Assembly: GCA_029821755.1 (NCBI GenBank)
Contig: JALGSV010000015.1
Span: 1,936 to 65,935 of the forward strand
Source: Candidatus Zipacnadum vermilionense
GTDB lineage: Bacteria > Armatimonadota > Zipacnadia > Zipacnadales > Zipacnadaceae
Direction: 5' to 3'
Length of the DNA: 64,000 bases
The translations under genes were made by a program, and so were the position numbers. The notes beneath the pieces were generated by a model, which had not been told where the DNA came from, searched no databases, and saw only the letters and a list, made by a program, of their open reading frames with translations. Shown here piece by piece: positions 22,531-24,132 of the stretch. Every line of letters begins with the position of its first letter. Position 1 is the stretch's first letter.

Positions 22531-24132
22531 CTAACGGCCAACTCCGTACTGTACTAGCCCTGCGTGTCCTCCCCGGTCTTGTGTAGCCTTCCCCCTCCGG
22601 TAGCACGTCCACGAGTCCACTCGCCAGACCTCGCGCAGCTCCGCGCCTAGGGTCTGTTGCCAGGTCGCCCGCAACTGCCCTGCCTCCGGCTCCGCCACCA
22701 GGAGCACCTCCCCCGCCTCGGGTAGAGCCTTGGCCGGGGGGCGGGGGTCGGAGAGCAGGGCCAGGCGCCCCAGGTCGCCGCCCAGTAGGGCCACGGCGAA
22801 GCCCGGCCAGCCGGCTACGACCGCCGTCTCCCCGGGGCGTAACTCCGCCCGGAGGCGCTGGGCTACCTGCTGCTCGGCCTGGGCGCTGTCGGTGAAGGCT
22901 AGGTTGCCCTGCAGCGCCTCGCGCATTCCGCGGGGCAGCCCGCCCCCGGCGTGCCCGGCCAGCAGCACCGCCGCTATCCCCGCCACCGCCAGCACTCCCG
23001 CCGCCGCCTGCCGCCCCCAGCCGAGCTGCTGGGCTTGGCGGACCGTTCGCGCGGCGAGGAGATACCCGCCTGCCATCGCCGCTAGCAGCGGCACGGTGAG
23101 TTGCGACCAGGCGTCCCCCGCCAGGCGCCCCAGCAGGGGCGTCGCCAGGCCCGCCAGCACCAGCCCCCCTGCCCCCAACAGCAGTGAGACCGCCGTCTTC
23201 TCCCGCCCGTGGCCCCGCAGCATGGCGTAGACGCCGGCGGGGAGCAGCGGTGAGCAGAGCAGGCCCAGGTACAGCGCCATCAGGAGCAGATTGCCCACCG
23301 CATGTGGGGGGCCGCCGAAGGTGTAGCGCCAGAAGTACCAGGGGTCGCCCTGGATCAGCCAGCAGGCGGCAATCCACCCGGCGCCCAGGTAGGCGGTGGG
23401 TAGGAGGAAGGCCAACAGCGTGCCCTCGGCTTGGCGGTAGCCCCCGGCCCGCCAGGCTACCACGGCCACCAGCCCCGCAGCCAGCAGCACCCACAGTAGC
23501 ATCTCGTAGCGGGTCAGGACCCCCGCCCCCAACAGCACGCTGGCGATGAGCAGCGGTCGCAGGGAACCGGTGGCGGCCCACCGATCCAGGCACCACAGAC
23601 TGCCCAGCAGCAGCGGCAGGAGCAGCGCCGCGGGCGAGCCCGCCGCGGCCTGGCTGAGCGGCACCGGATGCAGCACCACGCCCGCTGCCAGCAGGTACCG
23701 CCACGGCCAGGCCAGCCCCAGCGCCCGGGCCATCGCCAGGAGGATCACCGCCGTCAGCCCCAGCAGCACTGCTCCCAGCCGCGCCGGAGCGAAAGGCGTC
23801 TCCGCTGCAGGGGGGCGGGGGATGACCGCCAGGGAGGCCAACAGCGAGGGCAGCGGCGGCTGCACGTAGCCGATCTCACTCAACCGTGGCTCCGGGGCGC
23901 GGTACCAGATGTCCTCAGCATGGCCCACCGCCGCCAGACCTTCCCAGTTGACCTGCCCGGCACCCGCCGACAGGCTCCCCGCCCGCAGGCACAGGCCGGC
24001 GACAAGGAGGAAGGCAAGCAGGTACTCCAGGATAGCGGGCCAGCGTACCTTCCGGTCCGCGTGGGGCGGGCTTTCTAGCCCGCCCTCCCCTGCGTGGGCT
24101 AGAAAGCCCGCGCTACGCGCGGAGGCGCTCAT
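22531..24132 (-). CDS. polytopic membrane protein, GT39/ArnT-like (putative glycosyltransferase) with C-terminal soluble domain
   Basis: More than 10 TM helices. The ATG overlaps the GT2 stop as ATGA. The first 25 codons are encoded by an inverted pair of REP elements (…GEGGLESPPHADRKV…). Confidence 0.6.
   Translation of the reverse strand: MSASARSAGFLAHAGEGGLESPPHADRKVRWPAILEYLLAFLLVAGLCLRAGSLSAGAGQVNWEGLAAVGHAEDIWYRAPEPRLSEIGYVQPPLPSLLASLAVIPRPPAAETPFAPARLGAVLLGLTAVILLAMARALGLAWPWRYLLAAGVVLHPVPLSQAAAGSPAALLLPLLLGSLWCLDRWAATGSLRPLLIASVLLGAGVLTRYEMLLWVLLAAGLVAVVAWRAGGYRQAEGTLLAFLLPTAYLGAGWIAACWLIQGDPWYFWRYTFGGPPHAVGNLLLMALYLGLLCSPLLPAGVYAMLRGHGREKTAVSLLLGAGGLVLAGLATPLLGRLAGDAWSQLTVPLLAAMAGGYLLAARTVRQAQQLGWGRQAAAGVLAVAGIAAVLLAGHAGGGLPRGMREALQGNLAFTDSAQAEQQVAQRLRAELRPGETAVVAGWPGFAVALLGGDLGRLALLSDPRPPAKALPEAGEVLLVAEPEAGQLRATWQQTLGAELREVWRVDSWTCYRRGKATQDRGGHAGLVQYGVGR
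24058..24122. repeat. REP/MITE-like element pair in inverted orientation (B1 24058-24092, B2 24092-24122)
   Basis: CGCGTGGGGCGGGCTTTCTAGCCCGCCCTCCCCTG followed by GCGTGGGCTAGAAAGCCCGCGCTACGCGCGG. Confidence 0.6.

Follow-up and report, generated by a model that had tools for sequence, protein, structure and literature searches.

A 64,000-nt stretch of the genome of Candidatus Zipacnadum vermilionense (contig JALGSV010000015.1; hereafter the window) carries on its minus strand a gene for a membrane protein whose start codon overlaps the stop codon of an upstream gene for a family 2 glycosyltransferase (GT2), and whose codons 5-25 are made up of two copies of a repetitive extragenic palindromic (REP) element in inverted orientation. 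This REP dimer very probably entered the membrane gene in frame, close to the 5' end of its coding sequence, where it lengthened a short cytoplasmic tail, and the start of the gene stayed the ancestral ATG. All coordinates are those of the window.

The REP pair and the start of the membrane gene

The features of the junction between the two genes are as follows.

22531..24132, minus strand: membrane protein gene (predicted GT-C fold), 533 amino acids (aa); orthologs have 486-500 aa
24129..25637, minus strand: upstream GT2-family glycosyltransferase gene (Pfam Glyco_trans_2_3, 2e-23), with a putative 5' end
24138..24144, minus strand: Shine-Dalgarno-like GGAGGGG, 6-12 nt upstream of the ATG, within the 3' end of the GT2 gene
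24130..24132, minus strand: start codon ATG of the membrane gene, overlapping the GT2 stop TGA (24129-24131) as ATGA
24092..24119, minus strand (gene orientation): REP unit 1, CGCGTAGCGCGGGCTTTCTAGCCCACGC, with a GTAG head and a 'C-type' stem; nhmmer E = 1.5e-7
24086..24091: spacer of 6 nt between the tails of the two REP units, the loop of the long hairpin
24058..24085, plus strand: REP unit 2, CGCGTGGGGCGGGCTTTCTAGCCCGCCC, with a GTGG head, matching the consensus with 0 mismatches; nhmmer E = 2.7e-9
23962..24042, minus strand: first transmembrane helix (TM1), residues 31-57, located by AlphaFold2, hydropathy and ortholog alignment

The codons that follow the ATG, SASARSAGFLAHAGEGGLESPPHAD, hold an inverted repeat that occupies codons 5-25. 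Its arms (24058-24081 and 24096-24119) are 24 nt each, 92% complementary and separated by 14 nt. The REP pair as a whole measures 62 nt and its units, which lie in opposite orientation, agree with the consensus of the REP family of the window at 28/28 (unit 2) and 24/28 (unit 1) positions. The original prediction, made from the letters of the sequence, had held that the first ~25 codons are two inverted REP copies, and both the inverted repeat and the family matches at 24058-24119 bear this out. Unit 1 codes for roughly ARSAGFLAHA and unit 2, which is read antisense by the membrane gene, for GEGGLESPPHA, a peptide that is also encoded by REP units within two other genes of the window. A stretch of the REP-derived N-terminal extension reads MSASARSAGFLAHAGEGGLESPPHAD. 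The conserved basic residues R27, K28 and R30 directly precede TM1.

On the minus strand the junction reads ...GGAGGGGAAGCT-ATG-A..., with the ATG at 24132-24130, and the predicted overlap with the GT2 stop as ATGA is present at 24132-24129. Between the upstream stop at 24729 and codon 68 the frame of the membrane gene contains a single ATG, GTG or TTG, namely ATG 24132. The next canonical start in frame is GTG69, which is positioned past TM1, and the frame scan thus agrees with the earlier statement that no such start lies downstream before the first helix. Near-cognate codons upstream of or within TM1 are limited to ATC34 and CTG35/38/47. The frame is also open for 198 codons upstream of the ATG (24133-24729, within GT2), which is probably an artefact of high GC content. 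Because this opening is devoid of ATG, GTG and TTG, ATG 24132 is the unique candidate start. The public annotation contains an identical protein of 533 aa (P0001; 100% identity and coverage).

Comparison with orthologous loci

A homolog search yielded 14 relatives of 347-526 aa, mostly 486-500 aa, of which the 13 long ones entered the alignment. Homologs that are not cut short N-terminally begin 6-9 residues before TM1, typically with M-R-x-R, and the segment SARSAGFLAHAGEGGLE...PHAD was absent from all 13 aligned proteins. Relative to the orthologs the window protein has ~21 extra aa at the N-terminus and ~19 at the C-terminus. The six closest orthologs share 71-75% protein identity with it, and the invariant residues of the family are all kept in the window protein.

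Comparison with orthologous GT2-membrane gene pairs in relatives had been proposed together with the original prediction, and was carried out on five loci (L001, L002, L053, L055 and L056). The gene order SurA-like / GT2 / membrane is kept in four of these, while L053 is a short contig in which only the GT2 / membrane pair is readable. All five membrane genes start at the GT2 stop, as ATGA or TGATG, and none has the REP segment. A GGAGG is found 7-12 nt upstream of the ATG in 5/5 loci, and the conserved Glu at the start of TM1 (E36 in the window protein) follows 8-13 codons after the ATG, again in 5/5. L001, which is among the closest relatives (75% protein identity), reads GGAGCT-ATGAGCGCC-GGCTCGCCCCGGATAAGGTGGCC, whereas the window reads GAAGCT-ATGAGCGCC-[TCCG + 62-nt REP pair + GAC]-CGGAAGGTACGCTGGCC. 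In the DNA alignment of the two the first 9 nt, ATGAGCGCC, are identical and are followed in the window by a net gain of 63 nt (21 codons) that coincides with the REP pair. It is apparent from this alignment and from the ortholog junctions that the ancestral Shine-Dalgarno sequence, the ATG and the first three codons have been retained, with the REP pair in frame behind them.

Two alternatives had been put forward for the junction, that the element pair created or extended the N-terminus, or that translation uses an unusual initiation site. The gain of 63 nt behind a conserved ATG favours extension. The second alternative gained no support, as there is no canonical start downstream and initiation at ATC34 or CTG35 would remove the basic residues. 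No REP copies were found in the syntenic loci read from the relatives (~3-13.5 kb each), and the insertion or expansion of the REPs is therefore lineage-specific. An attempt to place the insertion boundaries at the nucleotide level from the L001 and Obg DNA alignments was abandoned, because DNA identity is ~75-79% and the surrounding loops are variable.

The REP family in the window

A census of REP copies by Hamming scan and nhmmer profile over the whole window found 13 units at seven loci and nothing else. The 15-nt core GCGGGCTTTCTAGCC occurs nine times at <=2 mismatches, against 0.28 expected, and 0/100 shuffles reached nine. The consensus of the unit is (TC)CGCGTGGGGCGGGCTTTCTAGCCCGCCC(TCCCC), the units being ~28-35 nt in length, and a further sequence string of the same family is CGCGTGGGGCGGGCTTTCYAGCCCGCCC. 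Each unit can be drawn as a stem-loop, GGGCGGGCT-TTCT-AGCCCGCCC, with a 9-bp stem and a 4-nt loop. The head tetranucleotide is GTGG in 11/13 units and GTAG in the other two; such a head, joined to a stem and loop of these sizes, is the anatomy of GTAG-type REPs. The seven loci are listed below.

8732..8831: REP cluster of 3 units, intergenic
24058..24119: REP pair at the N-terminus of the membrane gene
27578..27648: REP dimer, intergenic, between divergent SurA-like and ribosomal-protein genes
28975..29036, plus strand: REP dimer in frame within obg (28067-29413, plus)
39895..39976: REP dimer, intergenic, between convergent genes
43299..43326, plus strand: single REP unit in frame within a gene for a 469-aa protein (42504-43913, minus)
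51709..51736, plus strand: single REP unit in frame within a glycoside hydrolase family 2 (GH2) gene (49099-52740, minus)

Inverted pairs of one architecture, with heads outside, tails facing and a spacer of variable length, are present at five of the seven loci. Each of the five dimers (8732, 24058, 27578, 28975 and 39895) consists of one 'G-type' unit (GTGGGGCGGGC...GCCCGCCC) and one 'C-type' unit (GTGGCGCGGGC...GCCCGCGC), the two types differing by a compensatory variant of the stem, and both of the single units within genes are G-type. Four of the seven loci are intragenic and in frame, as checked against orthologs, and for these the word extragenic in the name of the element does not hold. 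Read from the consensus, a REP unit contains stops in only 2/6 frames, through the CTAG in the loop, which makes survival of units within open reading frames (ORFs) easy.

In-frame insertions in other genes

The dimer in obg (28975-29036) adds 22 aa to the GTPase domain, between the NKxD and SA motifs, and orthologs at 84-85% identity are without it. In L002 this loop of Obg holds a short insertion too, but a different one. The single unit in the GH2 gene encodes TGEGGLESPPHA in a linker just before the TIM barrel, and most of 22 orthologs lack it. More distant GH2 orthologs (P0151-P0155) have other Gly-rich inserts at the same linker, e.g. GVQGSG...TDHRSPVTDH, which may derive from other repeat families.

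In the gene for the 469-aa protein the single unit encodes SGEGGLESPPYT, and most orthologs are without the insert; at this site L061 is empty, and the insertion in L060 is either another one or a decayed copy. The L058 ortholog (68% protein and 71% DNA identity), by contrast with the empty site, carries the same REP at the same site (codons ~194-205), identical at 35/38 positions; owing to a deletion of 1 nt, the peptide encoded there is shifted and reads GEGGLEARPTR. Judged from these sequences, the shared site would imply repeated targeting (re-insertion at a hot-spot), gene conversion, or selection on the DNA sequence.

The insertions in obg, the GH2 gene and the 469-aa gene sit in mid-gene and must be read through, from which it follows that the REP family is tolerated as coding sequence. 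Translation of the N-terminal copy finds its strongest indirect support in these internal in-frame insertions. A further suggestion is that REPs are kept within coding sequence as functional DNA or RNA hairpins, with possible roles in ribosome pausing or mRNA processing where domains meet or coupled genes adjoin, or in the binding of a RAYT-like protein (RAYT, REP-associated tyrosine transposase). The intragenic position of 4/7 loci, the threefold use of the frame that encodes GEGGLESPP and the same-site REP of L058 hint in this direction, and the suggestion is nevertheless rather doubtful.

Fold of the host protein and effect of the extension

The membrane protein had been described as GT39-like. 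Comparison with Pfam gave no match at E <= 0.01, and two orthologs have a weak precomputed match to PF13231 PMT_2 only. An AlphaFold2 model built from a 14-sequence alignment had a predicted TM-score (pTM) of 0.81, and a Foldseek search with it against the PDB returned GT-C enzymes for all of the top 32 matches (AftA, PglB, STT3, ALG12, ArnT, Pmt4 and DPY19). Foldseek probabilities were 0.97-1.00 (1.00 for the top 26), with TM-scores of 0.44-0.52 for the 21 best and down to 0.30 lower in the ranking. Pmt4 came 18th among the fold matches, after AftA, PglB, STT3 and ArnT. On the evidence of the model the protein has a GT-C fold, with about equal likeness to AftA, PglB, STT3, ALG12, ArnT and Pmt4, and does not appear to be specifically GT39; the earlier description as GT39-like fits it loosely.

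Conserved residues of the GT-C fold are found in its first helix and first loop. In the window protein the loop that follows TM1 contains H71, A72 and D74, which are invariant across the 14 homologs and whose catalytic role is putative. Because these invariant residues are in the loop that follows it, TM1 is needed for the topology and the start must be upstream of TM1. TM1 itself (residues 31-57) is modelled as a helix with a predicted local distance difference test (pLDDT) score above 90, whereas residues 1-26, exactly the REP-encoded part, score below 50. From GT-C topology and the positive-inside rule the extension should be a disordered cytoplasmic tail. At the other end of the protein there is a C-terminal extension, ...RRGKATQDRGGHAGLVQYGVGR (22531-22590), whose residues 518-533 also have pLDDT below 50 and in which no REP copy is present.

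RNA structure at the junction

In the mRNA the REP pair is a perfect stem of 16 bp that starts ~22 nt after the A of the AUG, and the predicted fold of 131 nt around the start has a minimum free energy of -72.6 kcal/mol (z = -3.1). The mean unpaired probability of positions -20 to +15 was 0.33 in the window, as against 0.22-0.37 in five orthologs and 0.36 for the window sequence after deletion of the extra 63 nt in silico. The initiation region is not sequestered, since the REP pair folds on itself. Sequestration of the AUG had been entertained, as it pairs with the GTAG head in the 131-nt fold, but it was rejected because the AUG is 0.87 unpaired in a 220-nt context.

A scan for promoters and terminators over 23700-24500 found no promoter-like or terminator-like site between the GT2 and membrane genes. 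The same scan ruled out the REP pair as a promoter for the membrane gene, and the absence of a U-tract after the hairpin ruled it out as an intrinsic terminator. The likely mode of initiation is coupled re-initiation at the ATGA, and a coupled ribosome arriving from GT2 would be able to melt the REP stem.

Origin of the extension and alternative explanations

The course of events that best accounts for the junction would begin with a membrane gene translationally coupled to GT2 through the ATGA overlap. A REP dimer of ~62 nt, resembling REP doublets forming hairpins (REPINs) and bacterial interspersed mosaic elements (BIMEs), with tails facing and made of one G-type and one C-type unit, would have inserted ~10-13 nt downstream of the ATG. 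The REP pair begins 10 nt after the GT2 stop codon, and the landing site would be the usual position of REPs just after an upstream stop; because the GT2 and membrane genes overlap, that position comes to lie in the opening codons of the membrane gene. The insertion would have persisted because it was in frame (+63 nt), stop-free and placed in a tolerant tail ahead of the basic residues and TM1, where its effect was presumably neutral. Translation would begin at the ancestral ATG 24132 with the ancestral Shine-Dalgarno sequence, probably aided by the terminating GT2 ribosome, and the ribosome would read through the hairpin sequence to give a 533-aa protein with a disordered N-terminus of 26 residues.

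Several points weigh against this course of events. Translation of the extension from ATG 24132 is deduced from the sequence, and initiation or elongation could suffer from a stable hairpin that begins ~14-22 nt behind the AUG. At ~75% identity the nearest ortholog is too distant for the exact insertion boundaries and any target-site features to be defined, and the core inverted repeat of 62 nt does not quite equal the net length difference of 63 nt. Mobilisation would have been by a RAYT-type transposase of the Y1/HUH kind, the gene for which is usually flanked by REPs, and no RAYT gene was found in the window, where ten small ORFs compared with Pfam in a search that was not exhaustive gave no Y1_Tnp match. 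It has also been argued that many REPs at annotated N-termini are in truth extragenic and appear intragenic through mis-called starts (PMC3733652). Mis-annotation of the start is an unlikely explanation in the present case: the ATG overlaps the GT2 stop, occupies the same position in all orthologs examined and is the sole canonical start.

That suspicion of mis-called starts also lends weight to the main competing explanation, in which the REP pair is an untranslated intercistronic element, the protein starts at ATC34, CTG35 or CTG38, and the hairpin acts as a stabiliser or attenuator of the mRNA. REPs are classically extragenic and lie just after upstream stops, the hairpin is strong, and CTG and ATC codons are indeed available at positions 34-38. 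However, the stretch between the REP pair and codon 69 is devoid of ATG, GTG and TTG, and no Shine-Dalgarno-like sequence precedes ATC34/CTG35, where the sequence is GGTACGCTGGCCCGCT. A start at these codons would furthermore delete the basic residues, whereas every ortholog has 8-13 residues including R/K before the Glu that corresponds to E36. The insertion is in frame and stop-free behind an intact ancestral Shine-Dalgarno sequence and ATG, and the same REP family is unavoidably translated within obg and the GH2 gene. Taken together these observations make an untranslated element improbable.

It is very unlikely that the insertion inactivated or crippled the gene, leaving either a recent pseudogene or, with coupled initiation blocked by the hairpin, a gene of very low expression. 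An ORF intact over 533 codons, with the invariant residues kept at 71-75% identity to the six closest orthologs, and a confident AlphaFold2 model both argue against such damage. The hairpin does lie near the start, but the predicted accessibility of the initiation region is not below that of the orthologs. The identity of REP unit 2 to the consensus suggests a young insertion that selection has perhaps not yet screened, yet a dimer of this family is also present in obg, an essential gene. Hardly credible is the absence of any mobile insertion, with either a native N-terminal peptide that resembles the repeat or an assembly artefact from repeat-induced mis-joining: repeats can cause mis-assembly and the allele is known from one genome only, but the units match the consensus at 28/28 and 24/28 positions, the segment is absent from 13/13 aligned orthologs, and the flanks are collinear with the orthologs (Shine-Dalgarno sequence and ATGAGCGCC upstream, RKVRWP/TM1 downstream), unlike those of a mis-join.

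Relation to known repeat elements

A review by Delihas 2011 (PMC3184786) deals with the effect that small repeat sequences have on the evolution of bacterial genomes. The closest precedent for an in-frame insertion of REPs at a gene start is the study of Di Nocera, De Gregorio and Rocco 2013, BMC Genomics 14:522 (PMC3733652), which described GTAG REPs lying inside ORFs, either singly or as dimers that code for 20-30 aa. Some of these were N-terminal, and they were located in loops and linkers of known proteins, although GTAG REPs were found to be mostly intergenic overall. Intragenic copies were most abundant in Opitutus terrae, where the GTAG-20 family is mostly GTGG-headed, and REPs between co-directional genes lay mostly within ~20 bp of the 3' end of the upstream gene (PMC3733652). 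The family of the window shares with these elements short G+C-rich stem-loops, a 5' GT(A/G)G head, occurrence as singles and inverted dimers, and a subset of copies within ORFs. It differs from them in sequence and in its host, which belongs to another, uncultivated lineage, and its peptides and core gave no match in the supplementary tables of PMC3733652. Unlike the N-terminal cases of that study, the start in the window is pinned to an ancestral ATG that overlaps the upstream stop, with no other start available.

The classic in-frame palindromic insertions into functional genes are the Rickettsia palindromic elements (RPEs; Ogata et al. 2000; PMC3733652, PMC10969869). The REPs of the window resemble them as in-frame palindromic inserts in unrelated functional genes that add surface or terminal peptides and leave the fold intact. 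They are set apart by length and host, RPE-1 being ~100-150 bp and specific to Rickettsia, whereas the units in the window are ~28-35 nt, the dimer is 62 nt and the head is GTRG.

REPINs and BIMEs are REP doublets (Bertels and Rainey 2011; PMC8049555) that are defined, and usually searched for, in extragenic space. The dimers of the window are like them in being dispersed, in consisting of two inverted REP units that form one long hairpin and in combining two subtypes per dimer, and unlike those defined in extragenic space in that the copies are partly intragenic. In E. coli BIMEs the REP types Y and Z alternate, an arrangement that the G-type/C-type heterodimers of the window recall. REP hairpins within operons, e.g. 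E. coli malE-malF, act as 3' stabilisers of the mRNA and as elements of differential expression. A stable hairpin directly after the stop of the upstream gene in an operon is common to malE-malF and to the window, but in the window it lies inside the downstream coding sequence, as the genes overlap, and any effect on mRNA levels would be hypothetical.

Intragenic GTAG-type REP dimers that are RPE-like in effect are thus a phenomenon already published, to which the window adds an unusually clean N-terminal case and not a new mechanism. Together with the in-frame copies in obg, the GH2 gene and the 469-aa gene, the case shows how densely GTAG-type REPs can settle within genes of an uncultivated lineage that has been little studied (4/7 loci in 64 kb, including the essential obg), and it offers a simple rule, that overlap of adjacent genes puts the preferred post-stop site of REPs inside the next gene. 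For annotators it means that protein segments resembling translated REPs, GEGGLESPPHA for one, derive from the element, and that REP masking limited to 'extragenic' space will miss intragenic copies.

Distribution of the core sequence

The best named homologs of the proteins of the window come from metagenome-assembled genomes (MAGs) of Armatimonadota and candidate division WS1. A scan of metagenomes with a lineage-specific 30-mer found one contig of 1.1 kb only, in which the copy is intergenic. An Rfam scan of the whole window matched only a tRNA, the REP element not being a curated RNA family; the tRNA gene (RF00005, 60 bits) is at 16742-16814 on the minus strand. MAGs of many phyla (genome-contig matches, loci L003-L052) share the 22-nt core GGGCGGGCTTTCYAGCCCGCCC, preceded by a GT(G/A) head; among them are Chloroflexota, Planctomycetota/Phycisphaerae, Acidobacteriota, Verrucomicrobiota, Desulfobacterota and others, with Phycisphaeraceae, Thermoanaerobaculia and Syntrophobacteraceae as further examples. 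One Chloroflexota MAG (JPAS_maxbin.107) has ~18 loci with the core. Some core copies are apparently within long ORFs with high GC content at third codon positions, putative instances being 5801-5822 of L019 (an ORF of 761 codons) and 4811-4832 of L044 (an ORF of 1058 codons).

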